Assembly (NCBI GenBank): GCA_037481835.1
Contig: JBBFKW010000026.1
Location: 1 to 14,741 of the forward strand
From: Desulfosoma sp.
GTDB lineage: Bacteria; Desulfobacterota; Syntrophobacteria; Syntrophobacterales; DSM-9756
Length of the DNA stretch: 14,741 nt
Direction of reading: 5' to 3'
Shown one piece after another: positions 1 through 14,741 of this stretch; the first letter of the stretch is position 1; each line of letters starts with the position of its first letter. The notes beneath the pieces are model-generated. The model searched no databases, was not told where the DNA came from, and saw only the letters and a program-made list of their open reading frames with translations. A program made the translations under genes and the position numbers.

Positions 1-9
1 AGTAAGCTC

Positions 10-102
10 TCACAGGGTAGATTTTTTGCTGGCGACCTCGGCGGCTCTGAGGGTGATCCCCTTCATTCTCGCAAGTTCCTCGATGAGCTTTTTCCTGGTC
101 AT
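10..102 (-). pseudogene. Truncated HU/IHF-like nucleoid protein (N-terminal helices only, 30 aa)
   Basis: ATG at 102 preceded by TAAGG. MTRKKLIEELARMKGITLRAAEVA resembles the HU/IHF N-terminus (M.K.ELIE.LA...G.T...AE). TGA at 10-12 stops it before the beta-arm region. Confidence 0.45.
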
Positions 103-112
103 TCGTGTTGCC

Positions 113-994
113 TTATTTGCTGATTTTAATGATTTTGGGTTCCAGCCCGGAGAGTTTCTCTCTCGTCGGGAAATTGAATCGTCCGCCCAAGAAAACTTCA
201 TTCCAGATAGAGAAAAGCTGCGCAGTGGCCATCACGTCCTCTGCGCAGTATTCCGCGATCTCCTGGTGCTTTCCTTCATGGTGAGCCTTCCAAACGTCCT
301 TTCCGCCCATGCCCGTTTTGACCGGAATGCCGGCCAGGTAGCAAGCTGCGGCAAGGGAGATGGGGGTATTGGACCCGTCCATGATCTCCCAACAGAGATC
401 AACATGGTATTTGGTGTAGCGGTTTCGGTAGTTGGCCGCCTTGTCTTCCCACTTGTCGTAGTTGTCGCAGTACAGGGCGACTCGACCACGTTCCAGGGGA
501 TCCAGATGCCTTGCGTACTTCAGTGTCCTAGCGACAATCGCCGGCATGTCGAACCTCGTGCCGTTAAAGCTCACCAGGCAAGGAAAACCAAGGATGTTGA
601 TGACATTTTGGGGCCTTACTTCATAGAGCATTGCTTCCCGAAACCGCAACCAGAAGTGCTTGATTAGTTCCATTTCGGAACCGTGCGCTGATGCAAGGTC
701 CAGGCTGAATGCCCCGTCCCCGCTTGGCTTGATGACGAGGGTGGATACTGCGACAATCTGGTGAAAATGGGGTTGGAGAAATGCGCCCTGAGCAACCGGC
801 TCCCCATTTTGTCCGGCACGCATGCATTGGAGCTTTTCCTTTTCCTTGTCTTTGCCGACGACTTCCACCATCTCCGTATCCGGAACCGTTTCGATGTCAA
901 AGACAAGGAACGTTGTGATCCTTCCGACCGAGTCTTTCCTCTTTGCCAAAATATAAGCCCCATCATGAAGAACCTTCGTTTCTTGTTTGCCCAT
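113..994 (-). CDS. PolB-like DEDDy 3'-5' exonuclease (DNA_pol_B_exo2-type), 293 aa
   Basis: ExoI VFDIETVPD, ExoII SFNGTRFDMP and ExoIII YCAEDVMAT, plus HVDL and GIPVKTGMGGKDV segments typical of this family. Start moved to ATG 994 (MGKQ), which follows an AAAGGGG RBS. Confidence 0.85.
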   Translation of the reverse strand: MGKQETKVLHDGAYILAKRKDSVGRITTFLVFDIETVPDTEMVEVVGKDKEKEKLQCMRAGQNGEPVAQGAFLQPHFHQIVAVSTLVIKPSGDGAFSLDLASAHGSEMELIKHFWLRFREAMLYEVRPQNVINILGFPCLVSFNGTRFDMPAIVARTLKYARHLDPLERGRVALYCDNYDKWEDKAANYRNRYTKYHVDLCWEIMDGSNTPISLAAACYLAGIPVKTGMGGKDVWKAHHEGKHQEIAEYCAEDVMATAQLFSIWNEVFLGGRFNFPTREKLSGLEPKIIKISK

Positions 995-1083
995 GATGAT
1001 TTTCCCCTTTAATATCGAAGTGTTTTGGTTGATAATATATAAAAAGACAAAGAAGTCAAACAAGACACAAGGGAGGACGGTAA
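995..1083. promoter_or_regulatory. AT-rich divergent promoter region between the exonuclease and mucR
   Basis: 89-bp intergenic stretch between divergent starts containing TTGATAATATATAAAAAG, with an RBS at each end. Exact -35/-10 boxes are not assigned. Confidence 0.45.
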
Positions 1084-1521
1084 ATGGGAAAACTATTGGA
1101 AATGGCGGCTTCCATCGTGGAAGCCCAAGCGGCAGGCTCTTCGCTTAGTACGGACGAAGTGGCGGAATCTCTACGCAGGGTCTTCAACGTCATCCGCGAA
1201 CTGGAGGCGGTCGAGTGCGGCGGACAACCGGAAACCACCCCGGTTCCAAAGGTACGAGCCGAACAGGTATCTCCCGCCGAGTCCATTCAGGACGATTACG
1301 TAGTGTGCCTTGAGTGCGGCCACCAATTCAACCAGATTACGGCTAATCACCTCAAGAGCCACGGACTGACTCCCCGGGAGTACAAGAAGAAGTGGGGATT
1401 TCGCCTGAAGGACTCGTTGGCCTGCAAGAATCTCCAGCAGAGCCGAAGCGAGGCGGCGAAGAAGAGGGGGATTCCGAAAGAGCTGAAAGAATACCACGAG
1501 AAAAGGCGAAAGCGGGCATAG
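1084..1521 (+). CDS. mucR: MucR/Ros family zinc-finger regulator, 145 aa
   Basis: N-terminal LLEMAASIVEAQ, then PAESIQDDYVVCLECG...HLKSHGLTPREYKKKWG...LAC...SRSEAAKKRG. GGAGG RBS upstream. Confidence 0.92.
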   Translation: MGKLLEMAASIVEAQAAGSSLSTDEVAESLRRVFNVIRELEAVECGGQPETTPVPKVRAEQVSPAESIQDDYVVCLECGHQFNQITANHLKSHGLTPREYKKKWGFRLKDSLACKNLQQSRSEAAKKRGIPKELKEYHEKRRKRA

Positions 1522-1524
1522 ACG

Positions 1525-1561
1525 AAGAAAAGGCGCCTTCGGGAAGAAGGCGCCTTTTCTT
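1525..1561. terminator. Intrinsic, probably bidirectional, terminator
   Basis: Perfect 16-bp stem AAGAAAAGGCGCCTTC / GAAGGCGCCTTTTCTT with a 5-nt loop, 3 nt after the mucR stop. The stem ends are A-rich on the left and T-rich on the right. Confidence 0.8.
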
Positions 1562-1614
1562 AAATGCGGGGAAAGAGCCAATGCCGGGGGTCGGCATGGG
1601 GAGAGAAAGCGCAG

Positions 1615-1878
1615 ATGGAAACCATCTTCGACCACGACCCCACACCCGAAGAACTGGACTTGATTTTTAATATCCGGTCCTCCGAAGACATGGAATCATA
1701 CAGGCGGATGATGGCCGGCGACGCAGACACCCAACTGGGTGAGATCGCCCGCCTGTATCTCCACCGTGGACAACCGGACCGTGCGGCCCAATATCTGGCA
1801 TCCATCGACGACCCAAGTTACCGATGGACGCTGGAGATGGCCTACCTTGCTCCCGATCTGCTTGCTCCCGAATCATAA
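1615..1878 (+). CDS. Small acidic hypothetical protein, 87 aa, with one TPR-like helix pair
   Basis: ATG at 1615 (METIFDHD) after GGGGAGAG. IARLYLHRGQPDRAAQYL resembles a TPR-like motif. The upstream ATG at 1564 abuts the terminator and is less likely. Confidence 0.65.
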   Translation: METIFDHDPTPEELDLIFNIRSSEDMESYRRMMAGDADTQLGEIARLYLHRGQPDRAAQYLASIDDPSYRWTLEMAYLAPDLLAPES

Positions 1879-1915
1879 AATTTCGGGCAGACTGAGCCCT
1901 TGGCGCCTTGCCTTT

Positions 1916-2354
1916 TCAATGTGGCAAAAAAGCCAACGCCTTGGATTTTGCAACACAAATCGACGCCACCAGAATCAACCCGACATAGTCGTCTTCATGA
2001 AGCTCCCCGTCCGATAGAGAGGGTGATGCACGTAACGGCCAAAGATCCGGACCGCCGCGCAGGAAAACATATCCGCGAAGATATGGAGTATCCCGCCTAA
2101 GGGAATCGCCCAGATGGGCCAACCTGCTCCGGGCTGCATGGAAACCAAAAACGCGATCACCATGGCGATCAGCCACCGCCCAGCTCGTGGCTCGATCCCC
2201 GGTGTCGCATGAGCCGGGGGCTTCGCGGCCCCAGAGGTGTTTCAATGAGGTCCGGAAGGATTGAAGATGGCGCAATCATAACTATGGTCGGAATCGGAAG
2301 GCCGAGAGCCGCGCCAACGCAACCGCCGATGATCTTGTGGGAATGCCAACGCAT
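1916..2354 (-). pseudogene. Frameshifted YdjM-like inner-membrane metal-dependent hydrolase
   Basis: AAGGAGG RBS. First frame has WHSH, SILPDLIE and HRGSSHE. Second frame has WLIAMVIAFLV and GGILHIFADMF...LYRTGS. Third frame gives a hydrophobic tail YVGLILVASICVA. This implies shifts near 2180 and near 2000. Confidence 0.7.
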
Positions 2355-2768
2355 CAGCTTCCTCCTTTTCCGTTTTTACTTCTCACCATTCATTTACGGG
2401 AAAGGCGAAAGGGTTTGCGTAGGATCTGGCGGAAGATAAGGCCTTCTTCCTCCGTCAAGAAAAACGCAACATTAGATTAGGTCTCTGACCATGGAAAGCT
2501 TCTCAACTGCAACGAATCAGACGCGGGAACGACTTCACCGGCTTCCCCAATGCCTTTGCTTTCATGTGACGATAAAGGCGGTTTGGAAGGCCTCGTCCCG
2601 ATGCCCATGCCATACCAGGGCGGCTGGCTCCCCTGTCCAAAAACACCGCATCGTCCGCCGAACCTGTTCCCGTCATACGCCCCAAAACCATTTGCTGACC
2701 GAGTGCTGCGTTGGGGTCATCCCCGGGAGTTAAGCACCCCATGACTTTGCAGGATGCAATAAAATAGT

Positions 2769-2796
2769 TTGACTAAACAACAGGTTGCCATATAGT
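2769..2796 (+). promoter_or_regulatory. Sigma70-type promoter candidate for the parA operon
   Basis: TTGACT (2769-2774), 16-nt spacer, TATAGT (2791-2796), with AT-rich AATAAAATAG just upstream. Lies about 50 nt before the parA start. Confidence 0.55.
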
Positions 2797-2847
2797 CTCC
2801 ATCGCATGTGGTGTGCCGTTGAGCATACACGACAGCGAGGAGGCTTT

Positions 2848-3648
2848 ATGATCATCACAGTCGGCAACAACAAGGGGGGTGTCGGCAAGACCAGCGTTAC
2901 CGTCAATCTCGCGGCAAGTCTTGGACGGCAGGGGGTCAAGACGCTGGTCGTGGACCTGGACAGTCAATGCAACGCGACGAGCATCTTAATAGGAAATCCC
3001 AACATGCGCGCTCCGTGTCTTTACGACCTCCTCGACCCGGAGGCGGACGGAGTGAGCGTCGAGGAGTGCATCTCGGACACCAGGCACATCAATGTCTGGT
3101 GTCTGAGCAATGTGGAAGATTCGAGCATGTTGGACATTCCTCTTGGCCGTGGCATTCCCGAAAGTCTCTCTCTGCTCCGAAACCGGCTGCGCGATCATGC
3201 CATTGCGAACTACGATGTGACCCTCATCGACACTCCTCCAACCATCGGACTGTGGCTTACGCTGGCTCTTGTGGCAAGTGACTGCGCCATCGTGCCCATC
3301 CACGCCTGTTCCAGCCACAGCGTAGAAGGCCTCCGTCGGGTCATTGATCTTATCAATGTCACCCGGGCGAGCCGCAACCCTGATCTTCGCTTTCTTCGAT
3401 TGCTCGTGAACCTTGCGGATTCTCGCACACTGGTGACGCGCCACGTGTTGGCGCTCGTCAAGGAGCGGTTTCCCGGACAAGCCTTTGAGACGATCATTCC
3501 TCTCAATACCCACGTGCAACAGGCGGAACTTTTGGGCAAGACCGTGTTTGAGCGGGACCCTACGTGCCGTGCCGCCAGGGCCTATCGCGCCCTGGCCAGG
3601 GAGTTGTCGGCCATGCTGAACATTCACGGGAGGGAATCCGATGAGTAG
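2848..3648 (+). CDS. parA: ParA/Soj family partition ATPase, 266 aa
   Basis: Deviant Walker A NNKGGVGKT, A' VVDLDSQCNAT, Walker B LIDTPP and C-terminal AARAYRALAREL. ATG at 2848 follows GAGGAGG. Confidence 0.95.
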   Translation: MIITVGNNKGGVGKTSVTVNLAASLGRQGVKTLVVDLDSQCNATSILIGNPNMRAPCLYDLLDPEADGVSVEECISDTRHINVWCLSNVEDSSMLDIPLGRGIPESLSLLRNRLRDHAIANYDVTLIDTPPTIGLWLTLALVASDCAIVPIHACSSHSVEGLRRVIDLINVTRASRNPDLRFLRLLVNLADSRTLVTRHVLALVKERFPGQAFETIIPLNTHVQQAELLGKTVFERDPTCRAARAYRALARELSAMLNIHGRESDE

Positions 3649-5065
3649 TAGCCAGGACGACCGGCAGCTTCCGCCCAGGAGGAAACGCAAGAGCTTCCTG
3701 GATCTCATTCGGGAAAGCACTCCCCCGATTGTGGATGCGCTCGATCAGTCCAAGGCACTGCTGGACCAGATGATGGCAAATGAGAAGAGCCCCCAAGCAG
3801 GGGTATCAGCACATGAAAAAGCAGGTGCATCGGCAGATGGAAAAGCAGATGAATCAGCAGATGGTGGCCGACAGGCGCCTCTGAAGGCGCCTGCGGAGGC
3901 GCCTCTATCGGCAGGTGCATCGGCGCATAAAAAAGCAGATAGATCAGCGGACGGAAAAGCAGGGGTATCAGCACATGGAAAAGCAGGTGCAGCGGCATAC
4001 GAAACAGCAGATGAATCAGCATATGGAAAAGCAGGTCAATCGGCAGATGAAACAGCAGGTTCATCAGCACATGGAAAGGCAGGTGGATCATCACACGTAA
4101 AAGCCGTTGCATCAGCATATGAAAAAGCGGGTGGATCGGCATATGGAACAGCAGGTGAATCAGCATATGAAAAAGCAGGTCAATCGGCAGATGAAACAGC
4201 AGGTGCAGCGGCACATGGAAAAGCAGGTGCATACATTCTTCAAATGCCCAGTTTTACAGAGAAAGAAGCTCTCGTTTATGAAATTCTAAAAAAATTGGGT
4301 GGCCGGGAAACGTCCCAGGACAGAATCGCAAGGGCGATCGGGGGGAGCTATTCTCATGTGAGAAAGGTTATTTCGGACCTTCAAAAAGCAGGTGTTTTGC
4401 TCGGGCAAAAGAAGGTTCTCCGTGGGCGTAAGGTGGTCTCGTTTTCCGTGGTGCCCGTGGACTACGTGTGTGCGAGCGCCGACGATGTTGTGGCCAAGAT
4501 CAAAAGGATCAAGTGGGATTCCCTTGAGGTCTTCCCTAAGATAGATAGATCTTTCAATAAGAATCTATCTATCTGCGACGAGAGCGAAGAGGCGGCGGGA
4601 GGCGCGTGCGAGGAATTTGACCCCTCCCTCTACCCGGACCTTGCCCGGATCGGTTTCGGCCCAACCCAGATGCGCCAGATCCGCCAAGCCTGGCAGAAGC
4701 TGGGTTTGGCTTTGGACGGCCTACCGGAAGCCCTGGACCGAGCAAACTGGATGGCGAGACCGGAAAACTGTGTGGAGATCAAAAACCCTCTAGGCTATAT
4801 CACGATGGCGCTTAAAAACGGCATGCCGTCTCCGCCCCCCGGATACAAAAGCCGCCAGGAACTGGTTGCCGAGGCCATGCGAGAGAAGGCGGAAAAGATT
4901 CGACAGTTGCAGCACCAATACTTCGAGGACGCCTTTACGGTCTGGTGGCATGAGCTGGATGAGTCGGAACGGCGGCGGATCGACGCCGAAAACAGAACCA
5001 GGGCGATGTATGATGTGCATCGCCGTGAATTTTTCAAGCGACACGTCTTTAAGCCTCTAACCTGA
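3641..5065 (+). CDS. Winged-helix protein with an internal repeat tract; probable replication initiator and/or partition adaptor, 474 aa
   Basis: Overlaps the parA stop by 8 nt. Ala/Gly/Ser repeat tract, then a wHTH (FTEKEALVYEIL...SQDRIARAIGGSYSHVRKVISDLQKAGVL) at about 4253-4455, then IKNPLGYI...PPPGYKS resembling the NPxGY segment of Rep-like C-termini. The ORF is well supported; the function is inferred. Confidence 0.6.
   Translation: MSSSQDDRQLPPRRKRKSFLDLIRESTPPIVDALDQSKALLDQMMANEKSPQAGVSAHEKAGASADGKADESADGGRQAPLKAPAEAPLSAGASAHKKADRSADGKAGVSAHGKAGAAAYETADESAYGKAGQSADETAGSSAHGKAGGSSHVKAVASAYEKAGGSAYGTAGESAYEKAGQSADETAGAAAHGKAGAYILQMPSFTEKEALVYEILKKLGGRETSQDRIARAIGGSYSHVRKVISDLQKAGVLLGQKKVLRGRKVVSFSVVPVDYVCASADDVVAKIKRIKWDSLEVFPKIDRSFNKNLSICDESEEAAGGACEEFDPSLYPDLARIGFGPTQMRQIRQAWQKLGLALDGLPEALDRANWMARPENCVEIKNPLGYITMALKNGMPSPPPGYKSRQELVAEAMREKAEKIRQLQHQYFEDAFTVWWHELDESERRRIDAENRTRAMYDVHRREFFKRHVFKPLT
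3797..4234 (+). repeat. Intragenic degenerate 12-bp tandem array (higher-order 24 bp), 33 units
   Basis: 6 units at 3797-3868 and 27 units at 3911-4234, consensus about GCANNTGNAWMR (e.g. GCAGGTGCATCG, GCACATGGAAAA, GCAGATGAATCA). A 42-bp spacer holds AGGCGCCT three times. Confidence 0.95.
4539..4574. repeat. AT-rich perfect 12-bp inverted repeat inside the Rep-like gene
   Basis: AGATAGATAGAT (4539-4550), spacer CTTTCAATAAGA, ATCTATCTATCT (4563-4574). Confidence 0.9.
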
Positions 5066-5234
5066 GTCCGTCATGGTTAAGTGGATGAGCCTCTCCGGAT
5101 CCCTTGGAGAACCTTTTTTGAGCACCGCGATGGCCGATTTTCACGACGAAGGGACGGCCGCGATGCTCAACAAATATGCTCTCAGGGCTCCAAGGTGGAT
5201 CTTCGCTGTTTTGTGTGGAAATCGAAAAAACGAT

Positions 5235-5526
5235 AACGATGCCGTCGACCAGGTCCGGCGCCACGAGCAGAAGGAGCGACCGGAATTAAAAGGAAGTCGT
5301 TTCGTCTGGCTAAAGAATGAGAGCGACCTCACCCCCAAACAGAGAGAGTTGCGAGAAACGTTGAGCATGAAAAGGCTCCACCTGAAAACGGCTCGTGCCT
5401 ACCCCATCAAGTTGGCCTTCCGGCAATTCTATGAACAGCCCCCCGAACACGCAGAAGTTTACCTTCAACGCTGGTTTTTCTGGGCAACCCACAGCCATTT
5501 AGAGGCAATCATCAAGGCAGCCTATA
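5235..5526 (+). pseudogene. Internal fragment of an ISL3-family transposase
   Basis: NDAVDQVRRHEQKERPELKGSRFVWLKNESDLTPKQ...LKTARAYPIKLAFRQFY...YLQRWFFWATHSHLEAIIKAA matches the ISL3 central region. The preceding FDRFH motif and the following HW.GI...EG.N motifs are absent. No terminal repeats seen. Confidence 0.85.
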
Positions 5527-5547
5527 GGCGAAGGAAGGAGAGAATCC

Positions 5548-5979
5548 ATGGGTGAATTCATCGGAATTGCAACACGTATCGCAAGGCAAATCAGCGCAAT
5601 GGCAGCTGAACAAGGCGGGATAAGTCCCCAGGATCTACCTGAAATTGGATCGAGAGCTGCAGGTAGAGAAGAAATCAATATTTATCCTGGTGTTCCTGGT
5701 TACAGGTGTCATGAACTGTCCCTTTTTATTTCCTTGTCTTCTCCTACGGTTGTCAAAGGCAGGCGTGGCCACCTGTCATGTAGGCAGGCCCTCGAAAAGA
5801 TGGTGCAACATATGCAAGGAACGTGCATGGGAAAAACTAACATTGCGATTTTAGTTACTGATAGTTGGGATGCTGCTGCAGCTGATGAATGGGCAGGGAA
5901 TTTACGTCAGATAGCAAGAATGGCACATCTAGAAATTTATTTAATTGCTGGGCCAAATGTTTCACAAATCTACATGTGA
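5548..5979 (+). CDS. Hypothetical protein, 143 aa, integron gene-cassette ORF
   Basis: AAGGAG RBS, AT-rich codon usage unlike its neighbours, and a stop 6 nt before an attC site. Confidence 0.8.
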   Translation: MGEFIGIATRIARQISAMAAEQGGISPQDLPEIGSRAAGREEINIYPGVPGYRCHELSLFISLSSPTVVKGRRGHLSCRQALEKMVQHMQGTCMGKTNIAILVTDSWDAAAADEWAGNLRQIARMAHLEIYLIAGPNVSQIYM

Positions 5980-5985
5980 AAAATC

Positions 5986-6058
5986 GCCTAACAAATCGCT
6001 CCACCTTACCGCTATTCCGCTGGCGCTCTATAGCGGCAGGTGAGCCTGGTCGTTAGTC
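5986..6058 (+). mobile_element. attC integron recombination site, 73 bp
   Basis: R'' GCCTAAC (5986-5992), 5-nt spacer, L'' GCTCCACC (5998-6005), inner stem CCGCTAT/ATAGCGG, L' GGTGAGC (6039-6045), 6-nt spacer, R' GTTAGTC (6052-6058). L'' has the diagnostic extra base relative to L'. Confidence 0.88.
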
Positions 6059-6221
6059 GTCTTCAGGAGACAAGGAAACGCTGAGGGGAAAAGCGCTTGG
6101 GGATGTTGAAGGCGGCCTGACCTGTCCACTACTTTGGATAGAGCTGCGCGGTTCCTTCCACCGACAGTGGATGAAACGATAGCCGGGCAGGGTGTTCAGG
6201 GGTGATCGGTGGCCGCGTTTT

Positions 6222-9818
<3,597 letters not shown>

Positions 9819-9894
9819 GCCGTGATCTCCGCCGTGCGTACCGTGTCCAACCCAACTTTCATGGCCCACTTTGCGCACCCCGCATGGATGTCAT

Positions 9895-9914
9895 GTCCAT
9901 TTGCGTCCATTTGC
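9895..9914 (+). repeat. 10-bp tandem repeat (GTCCATTTGC x2) in the recC-recB spacer
   Basis: GTCCATTTGC GTCCATTTGC followed by GGTT, seen directly. Confidence 0.6.
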
Positions 9915-9974
9915 GGTTCTCTTTCACCTTGCCTGAGCGATTTCACCGGGTTTCTCTCTCACCGCGCGATTCGC

Positions 9975-10037
9975 GGGCGGGGATAAACCCCGCCCCTACG
10001 CAGCGCCTCTATGTAGGGGCGGGCTTTACGCCCGCCC
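9975..10037. repeat. Inverted pair of GTAG-type REP elements (REPIN-like doublet)
   Basis: Minus strand 9975-9999 reads GTAGGGGCGGGGTTTATCCCCGCCC. Plus strand 10013-10037 reads GTAGGGGCGGGCTTTACGCCCGCCC. They are 13 nt apart, and each is GTAG plus a GC-rich hairpin. Confidence 0.85.
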
Positions 10038-13000
10038 TTCGGGGCCGCCCCCTGAAAGAAGATCGTCCAATCCGGGTTGCGGAAGCCCCAGGGCAAGCGC
10101 CAATGGGGTTTGGCGTCATTTTCGGTGATGCTCCGCTGGCCTGGAGGATGGGATGGAAGACAGCGCGGGCGATCCGGCAAAAGTCGTCGTCCAGGGGTTC
10201 CCTTCCGCGGAACGCCGTGGCGACGCAGGCGTCGAAGCCTTCTCCCATTTGTTTGTAGTCGTCCTTGAAGGTGCGCTTGCACCGGGCTCGCACCTTGTCC
10301 TCCGAATCGTCCTTGGCGGCTCCGGAAGCGAATTCCCAGCTGGTGTCGGGAAAGAAGGGAATCGGTCTTTCCTGCCCTTCCCGCCAGAGGTCCAGGAGGG
10401 TGCGCAGGTGGTCTTCGGGCTTCGGCACCTCGCCTAAGCGAAAGACCGCGTCCTTGGCCACGTGAACACTTTCCAGAGCCACTCCCGGAGGACGTACGGC
10501 GCAAAGGGCCAGGTGGCGGATGCCCAGGCGGATCCGGTCCTTGCCCTTGATTTTCGCCGGGCGTACCTGCATCAGGCCCCGTTCCGTCACCTGGGGAATC
10601 CAGCCCCGGAGCCGGACACTCCCGAGATGCAGATCCACCTCCACCGCCTTCCTAGAGGTTCCCGCCCATTCCCGCACCCTTTCCGCCATCTCCTCCATGG
10701 CCCGAAAGCTGTCGCGAAAGACCACCTTCCCGGCCGCTCCATGGGGGAGCACCCCCCGGGCGCGGAGGAGTTCCCAGGTTTCTTCGGGATCCCGCCCGTC
10801 CAGGACCGCCTGGAAGATGTCCGTTTCCATCCGGTATCGGTCCAGCCCCGCCACGGTGAAGGGCTCTTCGTCCTGGATCGGGTCTTCCTCCCGGTAGGGG
10901 GTCATGCCCAGCGCCTTTTCCAGGAACCACCGGGACGGGTTTTCGAAAAAGCGCACGAGATCCTCCAGGTCCACTTCCGGAACGGTATGGACTCCCGCTT
11001 GCGCGGGAGTGATGGTTTGAGAAGTTCCCGTATCGTTTCCCGGGTCCGTGTGGCCGGGAAAGAACGGGGGCGTCTCGTCCCGCTCTTCCGTGCGGGCGGC
11101 TTCCAGCCACTGCCGGTCGTAGGAGAAAAGCCTCGGGTCGGATCCGTCGTAGAGGCGGCGGCTGAAGGGCTGGAGCGGTTGCCGTACTACGATGTCCGCC
11201 GACGGGGGCCGCCCGTCCGAAAGCACCCTAGATCCGTCCAGGTAGTCCAGCAGTTCCGACACCAGGACGCTCGGAACCCGCTCCCTGTCGTCCCGGATGT
11301 CCCGCCCCACGAAGCTCACGTAGAAGACGTCCCGGGCCGAAAGCAGCGCTTCCAGAAAGAGGAACCGGTCTTCCCGGTTGCGCAGCCGGTCCCCGGGCTG
11401 CGGATCCCGGGCCGCCAGGTCGAACTGCGGCGGGTGGTCCATGCGGGGAAAGTCGGAGTCGTTCATGCCCAAAAGGCACACCACCCGGAAGGGGATGGTG
11501 CGCATGGGAACCAGGTTGCAGAAGGTGACGCCCCCGGAAAGGAAGCGGCGGATGCTGGGGGCCGAATCCAGGAGCGCGCCCAGGTGGGCCTGCACCACCT
11601 GGACGGAAACGGGCTCGGTCATGCCGGCCAGGTCCGCGAAGCCGCGGAACCGATCCAGGGCCCTGCGGAACGAACGGAGGCTCCCTTCCCATTCCCCTTC
11701 CGGGTGGAAGAAGTCGTCCAGGAGCCGGTTCAGGAGTTCCTGCCAGCGGGATGGAGGGTGAGCTTCCTTGAGGGTTACCTGCCAGAACGCGATCCGGTCC
11801 AGGAGATCCTGGAGCTTTCCCAAGCACTCGGCCCAGGCCGCTTCCACGTGGGGATAGGAAAGCACCCGGCCGCAGAAGATCTCCCGGGGCGGCAGGGCGT
11901 AGCCCGCAAAGAGCCGGTCCAGGCCCATCTGCCACGTGTTGGCAGGGTCCGCCGGAAGTCCCCATTCTTTCTTTCGCTCGCCGTCCAGGCCCCACCGGAT
12001 GCCCGTTTCCCGGACCCAGGTGCGGATCCGGGCGAGGTCGTCCGGGGTGAGGTCGAACCGGGCGGCCACGGCGGGTGTTTCCAGCAACGAGAGCACATCG
12101 GAGGCCGTGAGACGCCGGCGGGGGAGGCTCAGCATCTCCAGGATCTTTTCCAGCAGGGGATCTTCCAGGGGGGCCTTTCGTTCCGACAGGTTCCACGGGA
12201 TGCGCGGGTCGTCCCGCGTGCCGAAGACGGCCTCCACGTAGGGGGCGTACACGTCGATATCCGGAGCCATGACCACGATGTCTTCGGGCGCGAGGTCCGG
12301 CAATTGGTCCAGCATCGAGGCGATCCGGTCGTGGAGCGCCTGCACTTCCCGCATGGGGGAATGGCAGGCGTGGACCTGGATGGACGCATCCGACCCGCTG
12401 AGGCGCTGCTTCGCCTCGGGGTCTTGGGGGCGGCGATCCGTCAGGTGAAAGATGTCGTGTTGCACGCAGCCCAGAAGGGAGGCGGGGGCGGGTTCCTCGA
12501 AGAGGTCTTCTTCCAGCGCCTCCGTCTCTTCGTGGATCTTCTGGAGGCTGTCGAAGAAGAACTTCCCGGACTGGGCCCACGATCCCATGAGCGGGTTGGC
12601 GTCGTCGGTGAAGGCCGACGCCAGGGCCCCGGTTCGGGCTTCCCGCCGGATCCGCTGCTTTTCCGTTTCCACGTCGCCCCAATAGGCCCGGCTGGGGTTG
12701 GGGTAGTAGAGGGTCACGGGAAGATGGGAGGCCAGGCGGACAAAGACTTCCAGGTGCACCGGGGCCAGATGGCTGACGCCGAAGAGGCTCACCCGGCGAG
12801 GAAGGCCTTCCGGCCGTTCGGGCGCCCGGCCGCCGCCCGCGGCCGTGCAGAACTGTTGGTGAAGACGGGCCTGGTGCGGTTCTCGGATACTTTCCGCCAG
12901 GCGGCGCCACAACACCGGCTGCCAGCCTTCCCCGCCCCCGTCTTCCCAGGAAAGGAGCATCTCCTGCCGATAGACCAGGTAGCGGTCGAAGACGGCGGCG

Positions 13001-13389
13001 ATCCGTTCCGCCAGCTGGTAGGCCTTGAGGCCCAAGGGATCTTCCGAAACGTAGCGCCGAAGGTCCGCGAATTCCTCCCGATCCAGGAAATCGGGAAGGT
13101 GCCGGAAGATGTGCCAGGTGAGCACGGGGCGGCTCCAGGCTTCCGGCTGGATGTCCTGGCCCAGCCACGCCCCGTAGACCGTCCGGATTAGGTCCGCCGG
13201 GACGAGAAAGCGGATGTTGGCCGCAACGCCTGCGGTGACGGCCAGCCTGTGGGTGATCCACCGGGCCATCCCCATGTCCTGCACCACCACGGTTTCCGGT
13301 TCCAGGGGATCCGGAGGCAGCGAAGAGATGTCCCTCGCAAAGGCTTCGAACAGTTTTTCCGTTCGGTTGCTCTGAACCGTCCGCCACAT
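10009..13389 (-). CDS. recC: Exodeoxyribonuclease V gamma subunit RecC, 1126 aa
   Basis: QSNRTEKL, DPLEPETVVVQDMGMARWI, IQVHACHSPMREVQALHD, DIVVMAPDIDVYAPYVEAVFG, FCNLVPMRTIPFRVVCLLGMND, DRFLFLEALLSAR and PLQPFS. ATG at 13389 follows GGGAG. Confidence 0.96.
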   Translation of the reverse strand: MWRTVQSNRTEKLFEAFARDISSLPPDPLEPETVVVQDMGMARWITHRLAVTAGVAANIRFLVPADLIRTVYGAWLGQDIQPEAWSRPVLTWHIFRHLPDFLDREEFADLRRYVSEDPLGLKAYQLAERIAAVFDRYLVYRQEMLLSWEDGGGEGWQPVLWRRLAESIREPHQARLHQQFCTAAGGGRAPERPEGLPRRVSLFGVSHLAPVHLEVFVRLASHLPVTLYYPNPSRAYWGDVETEKQRIRREARTGALASAFTDDANPLMGSWAQSGKFFFDSLQKIHEETEALEEDLFEEPAPASLLGCVQHDIFHLTDRRPQDPEAKQRLSGSDASIQVHACHSPMREVQALHDRIASMLDQLPDLAPEDIVVMAPDIDVYAPYVEAVFGTRDDPRIPWNLSERKAPLEDPLLEKILEMLSLPRRRLTASDVLSLLETPAVAARFDLTPDDLARIRTWVRETGIRWGLDGERKKEWGLPADPANTWQMGLDRLFAGYALPPREIFCGRVLSYPHVEAAWAECLGKLQDLLDRIAFWQVTLKEAHPPSRWQELLNRLLDDFFHPEGEWEGSLRSFRRALDRFRGFADLAGMTEPVSVQVVQAHLGALLDSAPSIRRFLSGGVTFCNLVPMRTIPFRVVCLLGMNDSDFPRMDHPPQFDLAARDPQPGDRLRNREDRFLFLEALLSARDVFYVSFVGRDIRDDRERVPSVLVSELLDYLDGSRVLSDGRPPSADIVVRQPLQPFSRRLYDGSDPRLFSYDRQWLEAARTEERDETPPFFPGHTDPGNDTGTSQTITPAQAGVHTVPEVDLEDLVRFFENPSRWFLEKALGMTPYREEDPIQDEEPFTVAGLDRYRMETDIFQAVLDGRDPEETWELLRARGVLPHGAAGKVVFRDSFRAMEEMAERVREWAGTSRKAVEVDLHLGSVRLRGWIPQVTERGLMQVRPAKIKGKDRIRLGIRHLALCAVRPPGVALESVHVAKDAVFRLGEVPKPEDHLRTLLDLWREGQERPIPFFPDTSWEFASGAAKDDSEDKVRARCKRTFKDDYKQMGEGFDACVATAFRGREPLDDDFCRIARAVFHPILQASGASPKMTPNPIGACPGASATRIGRSSFRGRPRRAGVKPAPT
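10991..11010. repeat. dRS3/RPE-like palindrome in frame within recC
   Basis: ACTCCCGC-TTGC-GCGGGAGT, i.e. ACTCCC-N8-GGGAGT, flanked by TGG and GA. Translated within ITPAQAGVH. Confidence 0.7.
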
Positions 13390-13553
13390 CGTTGAAAGCT
13401 CCCGCGGGATGGGTCCGCGCGTTGTCACAGGGTCGACGATGGATGCCGTGTCCAAAGATATGCCACAGGGCCACTCTCATCACAAGCCGTTGGGAAGGCA
13501 AGCGGGGAGACGTCCGCCTTTTCGTGGGGGAGGCGCAAAATCGGCCATGGCCG

Positions 13554-13577
13554 GCAGGGGGGGTTCGTGAACCGCCC
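13554..13577 (+). repeat. Degenerate REP-like hairpin
   Basis: GCAGGGGGGGTTCGTGAACCGCCC has the same layout as the GTAGGGGCG REPs, with GCAG for GTAG and a stem mismatch. Confidence 0.5.
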
Positions 13578-13605
13578 TGATGCAGATAGCGGGAATCGGG
13601 GAGCT

Positions 13606-13632
13606 GTAGGGGCGAATGATCATTCGCCTTTA
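13606..13632 (+). repeat. GTAG-type REP palindrome abutting the intron 5' end
   Basis: GTAGG, then a perfect 18-bp palindrome GGCGAATGATCATTCGCC (13611-13628), then TTTA. Confidence 0.75.
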
Positions 13633-14741
13633 GTGCTGCGTCGTCGTGAGGCGGGGTGGGAAGCAACCGGAGACGAACACACAGTTTGCAGGATGACGAA
13701 AGCGATTCGGCCTTACGACTCGACGAGTCTTCTAGCGAAGGACGAAGTCCAGACCGGGTCAAAGCGGCAAGGTATGGTCGAGATGCTGTGGCACTCGCAG
13801 ACGAAAGGGCGAGAAGCGGAGAACGCAAACTTCGACCTGGAGCCGGCCGACGTCGCCACGGGAGTCTGTCACGCTGGGCGGGCAGCGAGAAGCGATGGCA
13901 GGGGGCGTAGGGTGGTTGGCGGCGGAATGTGAGGAAGGTCACGTCATGTAAACTAGGGAGACCTGTCCGGGACGAGGACGGTGTTCATGGCACCTGGAAG
14001 GGCACGAAGAGCCGACCGGGCAAGAGTCAGAGCACCCATAGTAGCGAGGAAGCGGCGTAATGGCTGTGGAGCGAAGGGGTGCAGGAAGGTGGAGGCGAGA
14101 GGTCTATGACGGACGAAAGGAAACTTGCGGGAGTGCCGGGAGCTAAGCAAGCAGTAGAAGCCGCGAGCCGATGGGGCTGGGTGGAACGGAATGTCTGGAC
14201 CGAACGCATGCTGGAGGCCCTTGAAAGGGGTGTCAAAGGAGGCAAATGGTTCAGTTTGATCGACAAGGTCAGTCGGCGCACGACGCTTGAGGCCGCGTGG
14301 AAGCAAGTGAGGGCCAACAAGGGAAGTGCCGGGACGGACCACCAAGGGATTGAGGAGTTTGAAGTCCGGAAGGATGAAGAACTGGGGAGGCTGGAAGAGG
14401 AGTTAAGCCAAGGAAGGTATAAACCGAGGCCGATCCGGCGGGTCTACATTGACAAACCGGGCAGCCGAGAGAATCGCCCCCTTGGAATCCCTTGTCTGAG
14501 GGACCGAGTGGTACAAAGCGCTCTAAGGCTTGTGATCGAACCGATCTTCGAAGCGAGGTTTGCGGAAAACATTTACGGATTTCGACCACGGAGGGGATGC
14601 AAAGATGCTCTGAGGCGGGTGAACCAGGCCATCAAGGAGGGTTCCCGCTATGTGGTGGATGCGGACATCCGCGCCTACTTTGACAACATTGACCATGAGA
14701 GAATGATGGCCGATGTGAGGGGATCGATCGCAGACGGACGG
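13633..14741 (+). mobile_element. Group II intron, 5' portion (ribozyme domains I-III and start of IV); runs off the window
   Basis: Candidate 5' end GTGCTGCG at 13633 (approximates GUGYG; exact base uncertain). AACTAGGGAGACCT near 13951 as at the end of domain I. Domain III-like AGTCAGAGCACCCATAGTAGCGAGGAAGCGGCGTAATGGCTGTGGAGCGAAGGGGTGCAGG at 14025-14085. RT ORF follows. Confidence 0.85.
14106..14741 (+). CDS. ltrA: Group II intron reverse transcriptase/maturase, partial (212 codons, no stop in the window)
   Basis: Translated by hand; absent from the ORF track. MTDERK...WTERMLEALERGVKGGKWFSLIDKV...AWKQVRANKGSAGTD (RT0), PIRRVYIDKPG (RT1), RPLGIPCLRDRVVQ (RT2), YGFRPRR (RT2a), VVDADIRAYFDNIDH (RT3). 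Confidence 0.95.
   Translation, partial: MTDERKLAGVPGAKQAVEAASRWGWVERNVWTERMLEALERGVKGGKWFSLIDKVSRRTTLEAAWKQVRANKGSAGTDHQGIEEFEVRKDEELGRLEEELSQGRYKPRPIRRVYIDKPGSRENRPLGIPCLRDRVVQSALRLVIEPIFEARFAENIYGFRPRRGCKDALRRVNQAIKEGSRYVVDADIRAYFDNIDHERMMADVRGSIADGR

Follow-up and report, generated by a model that had tools for sequence, protein, structure and literature searches.

The DNA analysed here, called the window throughout, is a whole contig of 14,741 bp (C26, JBBFKW010000026.1) from the 3.63-Mb draft genome of Desulfosoma sp. (GCA_037481835.1, 38 contigs), and our subject is a two-gene module within it, in which the 3′ end of parA overlaps by 8 nt an open reading frame (ORF) that starts with the ATG at 3641 and encodes a protein of 474 amino acids (aa), hereafter the partner. 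The parA product matches Pfam AAA_31 (4.5e-34, residues 2-181) and CbiA (1.1e-19), and its Walker motif KGGVGKT, starting at residue 9, is invariant in an alignment with 6 homologous ParAs. It is a small, Walker-type ParA that lacks a helix-turn-helix (HTH) at its N-terminus, and a ParA of this build therefore needs a DNA-bound partner. Window ORFs gave no ParB match and the window holds no other ParA partner gene; the sole ParB_N of the genome is on contig C5, beside its own Soj-type ParA, and ParB matches of 1.2e-32 and 3.1e-35 served as a positive control.

An earlier account made from the letters alone (the sequence-only reading) had described this pair as lacking a parB and had listed, for the 474-aa ORF, a basic-then-hydrophobic N-terminal peptide, a low-complexity linker encoded by a DNA repeat array, a winged HTH, an AT-rich inverted repeat and an NPLGY-containing C-terminus. 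All of these elements were recovered where it had placed them (Table 1). Of the 94 full-length representatives of the family, 32 show the N-terminal pattern (like RRKRKSFLDLI) within residues 1-32, against 5/94 at the control position, residues 33-64. An AlphaFold2 model whose input alignment had 75 rows (74 of 131 relatives), with a mean predicted local distance difference test (pLDDT) score of 91.6, shows a confident winged helix and a disordered join to a separate helical C-terminal domain. Foldseek with the winged helix returned MarR/ArsR-type matches only, all at E > 0.01, and the family profile matches ZitR at 9.1e-8.

The C-terminal domain, which holds NPLGY at residues 382-386, was modelled alone with high confidence (AlphaFold2, 93-row alignment, pLDDT 96.7), and nothing clear was found for its fold: Foldseek gave E>=2 against the PDB and E>1 against BFVD, while the best Z in the wide VIA search was 4.9 and in a second VIA look 3.3, neither of which is convincing. 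Weak leads are the DnaD domain 2i5u_A (Z 3.9, root-mean-square deviation 3.1, 63 residues aligned) and the nearest named ESM Atlas clusters, C-terminal domains of RepB/RepA with scores of 0.83-0.84; neither the own genome nor any of 200 further genomes of the phylum has a match to PF07261 (DnaB_2/DnaD). Pfam and NCBIfam have no family for the 474-aa protein, their only matches being sub-threshold ones to winged helices.

Table 1. Features of the window, in order of position (TRF, Tandem Repeats Finder; positions are those of the window).
Feature	Position	Strand	Remarks
PolB-exonuclease-like 3′-5′ exonuclease gene	113-1063	minus	
Ros/MucR regulator gene	1084-1521		
Sigma-70-like promoter candidate TTGACT-16-TATAGT	2769-2796	+	consensus scan, 10/12 positions; pattern match only
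parA	2848-3648	+	ATG at 2848 after GAGGAGG; 266 aa
Partner gene (P0002), 474 aa	3641-5065	+	unannotated family member
Basic-then-hydrophobic peptide PPRRKRKSFLDLIRE, residues 11-25	3671-3715	+	candidate ParA-contact peptide, function inferred
First array block	3795-3864	+	TRF 24 bp x 2.9, 12 bp x 4.7
Array interruption: three GGCGCC palindromes, 12 bp apart	3873-3906	+	TRF 12 bp x 2.8, unit AGGCGCCTCTGA; also inverted repeat
Main array, consensus nnAGCAnnTGnA	3911-4232	+	TRF 24 bp x 13.4, ~27 units of 12 bp; candidate binding sites
Winged helix-turn-helix, residues about 204-290	4250-4510	+	AlphaFold2, Foldseek, profile
AT-rich inverted repeat AGATAGATAGAT-(loop)-ATCTATCTATCT	4539-4574	.	second linker; 11 matched bases per arm, 75% A+T
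C-terminal domain, all-helical, residues 325-474	4613-5062	+	contains NPLGY, PPGYKS; family hallmark
ISL3-family transposase fragment	5073-5555		directly after the parA-partner module
Terminator-like hairpin + T-run	5092-5110	+	just past the partner stop; consensus scan, pattern match only
RecB	6222-9878	minus	
RecC	10009-13455	minus	
Group II intron reverse transcriptase	14079-14741		running off the right contig end

The partner nevertheless belongs to a large family. An exhaustive HMMER search with residues 196-474 (about 200-474 in the outline of the sequence-only reading) against 1.84 billion representatives, clustered at 50% identity, returned 129 clusters at E<=1e-3, 29 of them at <=1e-10 and 6 at <=1e-30, with no known Rep family among them. 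Most members are 330-520 aa long and carry the conserved domain C-terminally, and no Pfam family covers that domain in the 130 relatives scanned; P0114, a Hpt protein and probably a false match, was rejected as a member and omitted from later counts. In their sources the relatives are named 'hypothetical' or MarR-family/DNA-binding regulator, and a word-indexed homologue search added one close relative, with 'hypothetical' names only. A scan of viral contigs found no relative, and tblastn found none in phages for the C-terminal domain and none in plasmids for P0013.

Family genes are present on four complete plasmids (Desulfohalobium pDRET01, the Cardinium plasmid p_A, and plasmids of Desulfosarcina BuS5 and Desulfobaculum bizertense), in 11/122 genomes of the class and 11/401 of the phylum (own genome counted in both), and in three metagenome contigs. 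Besides plasmids, the module is found in IncP-like conjugative regions (L029, L032, L033), beside integrases (L025, L030) and in islands that carry genes for an exonuclease, UDG, HU, a helicase, RecJ or SSB (L024, L028). At L030 (G062:C42, about 5300-9800) a truncated-looking tyrosine integrase, an unknown 291-aa ORF, ParA and the family gene lie between chromosomal genes (rhodanese, URO-D), and an ARAGORN scan found no tRNA there; this looks like an integrative islet of ~5 kb with the module as its main cargo.

Linkage to parA is close to universal. Where a locus extends for about 900 bp or more upstream, ParA lies directly upstream of the family gene in 17 of 18 cases, usually overlapping it or only a few bases apart, although these 17 are not independent since some are close kin (L032/L033, for example); the count leaves out L026, L029, L031, L051, L052 and L053, cut by contig ends, and the fragment L034. 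None of the 82 neighbouring ORFs of the homologues matches ParB_N at E<=1e-5. With linkage and ParB absence tabulated in this way, and with the only ParB of the genome at the Soj locus of C5, the ParB-less pair that had been proposed from a single contig proves to be a conserved arrangement.

The sole exception, L048 on a complete chromosome, has neither ParA nor the basic N-terminal peptide nor arrays, which, as one case, fits the view that the three belong together. L048 (G221:C1, about 1,350,300-1,351,480) is also ~1.4 kb from an opposite-strand RecB/AddA-like helicase-nuclease gene, the arrangement seen in the window at 5065-9878; coincidence and a shared insertion neighbourhood are both possible. 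Two further loci are unusual in their gene content. L023 (G094:C251, 788-4433, minus) has one ParA followed by two tandem family genes that are near-identical in winged helix and C-terminal domain and differ in N-terminal linkers and repeat units, and the adaptor may have been duplicated here to serve two site specificities. At L027 (G028:C31, 8944-9560), with a tRNA-Asn gene 630 bp upstream, ParA is split into two ORFs (121 and 79 aa), for which a sequencing error or a frameshift is the probable cause.

The array of the window gene has a sub-period of 12 bp and is read in frame as KAGxSA[HYD][GE], an 8-aa peptide repeat. Across the 32 twelve-mers of the window, G4 is kept in 31/32, C5 in 28/32, A6 in 28/32, G10 in 27/32 and A12 in 32/32, so that wobble positions 6 and 12 rank among the best-conserved columns of the unit. 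Codon choice is skewed in the same region: alanine is encoded by GCA in 34/40 cases in the array vs 7/48 in the rest of both genes and 5/232 in recBC. Genome-wide (3.63 Mb), TRF lists only 9 rows with a period of 11, 12, 13 or 24 that span at least 60 bp, and the window array scores highest among them; the other period-24 arrays (contigs C6, C8 and C1) were considered and are unrelated to ParA or to the partner family. Window units occur inside the partner gene only: the 800 bp upstream of parA contain one chance-level match (2 mismatches), and the unit motif was not found upstream of parA in 8 other homologues. Arrays that include a different 12-bp unit based on GGCGCC, as in the interruption of the window array, are also present in L029 (TGGGCGCCCAAG) and L024, and these blocks may be a second kind of site.

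The same kind of array is found throughout the family. TRF arrays with a period of 11-13 bp (or multiples) cover at least 48 bp in 18/23 family gene copies, compared to 43/2575 host-genome tiles of 1.4 kb; the five copies without them are the Cardinium gene, L048, L049 (degenerate), L050 (two unit copies only) and L026 (a C-terminal fragment). Homologues differ in unit sequence but keep to a period of 11-13 bp. One exact 12-mer, CGTCTACCCGAC, is repeated 23 times within the L030 gene and 0 times elsewhere in the 18-kb locus; frame 0 holds six of the copies, frame 1 eight and frame 2 nine, and they read as LPDR, STRP and VYPT. In pDRET01 nine copies of the core ACCGCYCA, spaced 13 bp apart, are followed by three of its reverse complement, so that both strands and all three frames are used, and one more copy lies elsewhere on the 45-kb plasmid. 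The D. bizertense plasmid has a 13-bp period; the BuS5 plasmid has an 11-bp period and its largest array (x 12.4) is downstream of the family gene, and the Cardinium plasmid carries a 12-bp x 13.5 array upstream of parA instead of in the gene. Close relatives of the window gene (L024, L052, L053, L054) keep the core GCAGGTG/GCACATG/GCACCT although the encoded peptides differ.

Repeats independent of frame, periods of 11 or 13 bp, arrays outside the gene and conserved wobble columns all indicate that what is selected in the intragenic repeats is the DNA rather than the protein. A repeat conserved as DNA makes the gene itself probably a site for its own product, and the partner gene would thus double as the binding site of the protein that it encodes. 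The claim that the module carries cis-sites inside its own gene, made for the window only, holds up, and most of the 23 family gene copies have such arrays.

A further DNA element lies in the second linker. The AT-rich inverted repeat of the window folds as single-stranded DNA at -11.3 kcal/mol (z -2.6), and AT-rich inverted repeats of at least 10 matched bases are found in 10/19 family genes vs 3/95 shuffles, nine of the ten in the linker between winged helix and C-terminal domain. Arms differ among homologues (GATAGATAGA, GATGATGAT, GAGAGAGAT, TAGTAGTAG), both arms covary and the loop ranges from 3 to 18 nt; arms that change together around a loop of variable length suggest selection for a hairpin or cruciform and not for a fixed sequence. 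The pDRET01 protein is only 27% identical to that of the window and yet its gene has the same GATAGATAGA arms. In close relatives the conserved peptide 'IDRS...NLSI' is the translation of the two arms.

As judged from these comparisons of sequence, the parA-partner operon is conserved on mobile elements together with intragenic arrays and a hairpin element. We hold it somewhat probable that this gene pair serves a mobile element as a type-Ib-like ParA maintenance cassette that has no ParB and holds its centromere-like array inside the adaptor gene. According to a published review (PMC9178275), small ParAs depend on partners that bind the centromere and stimulate ParA through their N-terminal region, and TubR, a winged-helix protein, coats its tubC repeats. 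For repeat binding, for the action of the peptide on ParA and for segregation as the output, we infer the following course. The 474-aa protein would be the DNA-bound partner of ParA, its winged helix binding the ~32 head-to-tail 12-bp units (core AGCAnnTG) in the DNA that codes for its own flexible linker; the coated array would become a large nucleoprotein complex acting as a centromere, in the manner of TubR with tubC or ParR with parC. From its place on the flexible linker, the basic N-terminal peptide would contact ParA and stimulate its ATPase, the C-terminal domain could hold the complex together or contact a conserved partner, and the nucleoprotein complex would be segregated over the nucleoid. 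A full-text literature search brought up neither an account of the family nor one of any ParA partner whose gene contains 12-bp arrays; a preprint on Fusobacterium RPA was considered and is unrelated.

Several observations sit uneasily with a partition cassette. The strict N-terminal motif pattern is seen in only 32/94 representatives, the parA promoter region, unlike that of classical type Ib systems, lacks the repeat motif, and pure partition leaves the conserved AT-rich hairpin and a C-terminal domain of 150 aa unexplained. The four complete module plasmids, in addition, have no annotated Rep (4/4), nor did Pfam find one among 26 unnamed proteins of those plasmids, and two of them, pDRET01 and the D. 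bizertense plasmid, have further pairs of a ParA and a small partner that are possibly sufficient for partition. These last points speak for a replication initiator, a role which the partner might play alone or besides that of a ParA adaptor: the units would then be iterons, the inverted repeat an unwinding element, the C-terminal domain a recruiter of host replication proteins, and the origin intragenic. We consider this possible, though doubtful. 'No annotated Rep' is itself a weak argument where the phylum has been little studied. At L030 an (AT)n run is part of the AT-rich inverted repeat, which has arrays on both flanks, in a module whose only company between chromosomal genes is one unknown ORF and an integrase, and the known initiator gene repA of pSK41 also has mid-gene arrays (23 bp x 3.8 and 15 bp x 2.6-3.9). 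The family profile nevertheless aligns to pSK41 RepA with a probability of 0.4% in hhalign, there is no match to a Rep family, the C-terminal domain has no convincing fold match beyond the weak RepB/RepA and DnaD leads, and DnaA boxes are not enriched (17 vs 13.9 expected). Rep_3, RPA and TrfA matched neither the partner nor the 130 relatives, the model has a single winged helix and not WH1-WH2, and TrfA was not found in 5 host genomes, though that search matched no control genome either.

Cumulative GC skew, computed with the gene masked, points both ways: its minimum is less than 2 kb from the gene in pDRET01 and in the D. bizertense plasmid, with significant skew in the latter but not in pDRET01 (p about 0.07), whereas it is away from the module in the Cardinium plasmid and 7-15 kb off in BuS5. 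Typical iterons are 17-22 bp long. Contiguous units of 11-13 bp in up to ~32 copies are closer to centromeres (parC, tubC) than to iterons. From the dual adaptor and initiator proposed in the sequence-only reading, then, the ParB-less pair, the DNA-selected intragenic sites and the peptide have stood, while for the initiator half no Rep family, no Rep fold and no DnaA-box enrichment came to light. That a single protein is both ParA adaptor and initiator of a two-gene replicon, with origin and centromere in one composite intragenic element and with a replicon type that is widespread and unnamed, is accordingly offered as a tentative proposal. We would be just as cautious in describing that element as arrays of 11-13-bp iterons flanking an AT-rich hairpin, readable in any frame, and it is again rather doubtful that the hosts of such a type are plasmids and integrative elements of Thermodesulfobacteriota and beyond.

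In IncP-like elements the pair adjoins kfrC and Tra1 genes, which does not favour an initiator; the kfrC neighbour would suit a KorB-like transcriptional regulator or silencer, for which the repeats would be an operator 'sponge' while ParA positions something other than the DNA of the element. The naming of relatives as MarR-family or DNA-binding regulators and the MarR/ArsR-type winged helix agree with such a role. Even so, we think a regulator improbable considering that the unit motif is absent from the promoter region, that almost every family gene is linked to ParA and the protein has a basic N-terminal peptide, and that at least 30 sites within one gene are unlike operators. Least credible, and very improbable in our view, is that the repeats are nothing but slippage-prone, low-complexity coding for a disordered linker, with no cis role. 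The window array, read in one frame as an 8-aa peptide repeat, would be compatible with it, as disordered linkers tolerate such repeats; conservation independent of frame contradicts it, as in L030, where one 12-mer is used in three frames, and so do the 13-bp periods on two plasmids and the 11-bp period on another, the inverted copies in pDRET01, the two plasmids with arrays outside the gene, the wobble positions among the best conserved of the window and the frequency of arrays in family genes (18/23) over tiles (43/2575).

The surroundings of the module are those of a mobile element. The left 6 kb of the window has ~50-58% G+C and mobile-element genes, the right part, where RecB and RecC are encoded, ~65%, and the parA-partner module sits at the right edge of the low-G+C island, abutting recBC. 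The ISL3 fragment and the group II intron reverse transcriptase are likely the reasons for the assembly breaks. No terminal overlap was found in the window or in 5 small contigs, hence circularity is not indicated for any of them. Upstream of the window module are the exonuclease and MucR genes; MucR is also found on pDRET01, and L024 has an RNase_T-type exonuclease, UDG, HU, helicase and RecJ near the module. Neighbours of the exonuclease/MucR type may be a recurrent accessory set.

Public reads were consulted as Logan contigs only, from whose depth and missing cover neither copy number nor absence can be read. For run X1, which is probably the source sample, unitig depth is 199-228 over 1-6355 and 123-151 over 6326-14676, and the unitigs break at ~6.33 kb, at the step in G+C from ~52% to 64%. 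Extra copies of the left, low-G+C part may thus be present, be it as an excised or replicating form, as a second copy or in other strains. Exact matches to 3311-3572, 3449-3599, 3729-3879, 4206-4407 and 4581-4768 were also found in runs X2 and X3 (study P2), on short contigs of low depth; as these identical contigs belong to another study, other samples contain the module or an element nearly identical to it.

Should the cassette work as proposed, a large unannotated family of ParA partners would add a further class of maintenance system for plasmids and integrative and conjugative elements. It would also be a natural case of dual coding, where a protein-binding DNA array is kept within an ORF and the linker takes whatever the DNA spells; synonymous recoding vs frameshifting of the array would part the DNA role from the protein role. 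Annotators could then spot maintenance or replicon modules on plasmids of sulfate reducers and their relatives that so far show no Rep, with possible vector parts for genetically difficult anaerobes.

Among known systems, type Ib partition (ParF-ParG-parH of TP228 and delta-omega of pSM19035) is alike in a small ParA without HTH and a non-ParB partner directly downstream, in a centromere of short tandem repeats and in a flexible partner N-terminus thought to activate ParA. It differs in its small ribbon-helix-helix dimer, where here we have 474 aa with a modelled winged helix and what appears to be a new C-terminal domain, and in centromere repeats that are upstream and double as operator, where here they are inside the partner gene and only the Cardinium array is upstream. 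The type III system TubZRC shares a winged-helix protein on tandem short repeats, and TubR coats them into a superhelical complex (PMC9178275). Its motor is the tubulin-like GTPase TubZ instead of a ParA ATPase, its tubC is outside the genes, and among the top Foldseek matches listed we found neither a sequence nor a fold match to TubR. Units of tubC are 12 bp long.

RepA_N initiators (pSK41, pAD1), with oriV inside repA, resemble the partner gene in repeats placed mid-gene, in the inter-domain region, and in a DNA-binding domain with a separate C-terminal domain. They differ, beyond the hhalign result, in that no RepA_N or Bac_RepA_C Pfam match is found here, where repeats precede the winged helix, units are of 11-13 bp in at most ~32 copies and ParA linkage is obligatory. 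In phage lambda, ori-lambda consists of binding-site repeats followed by an AT-rich element in the linker-coding part of the O gene. The layout is alike, with repeats and an AT-rich element in linker-coding DNA, but lambda O is a known initiator and replication is only a candidate role here; a single one of 130 relatives matches Phage_rep_O, below threshold (22.6 bits vs the 28.7 cut-off). The intragenic repeats shared with RepA_N and lambda O are a resemblance of layout, not a sign of membership. A ParA-type gene transcriptionally coupled to a gene with cis-sites in its own coding sequence is also known from repABC (for repC, PMC3155836); there, the genes are three and include the ParB-type RepB, while here they are two, without RepB and without a Pfam RepC match. 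As for the ParB/Spo0J/KorB/SopB class, neither ParB_N nor HTH_ParB matches the 474-aa protein or its 130 relatives. The cassette therefore lacks the features that define ParB, ParG/omega, TubZRC, RepA_N, Rep_3/TrfA and repABC. By analogy, it would work like a type Ib ParA system and, in the build of its centromere, like TubR-tubC, with a layout that recalls lambda O and RepA_N.

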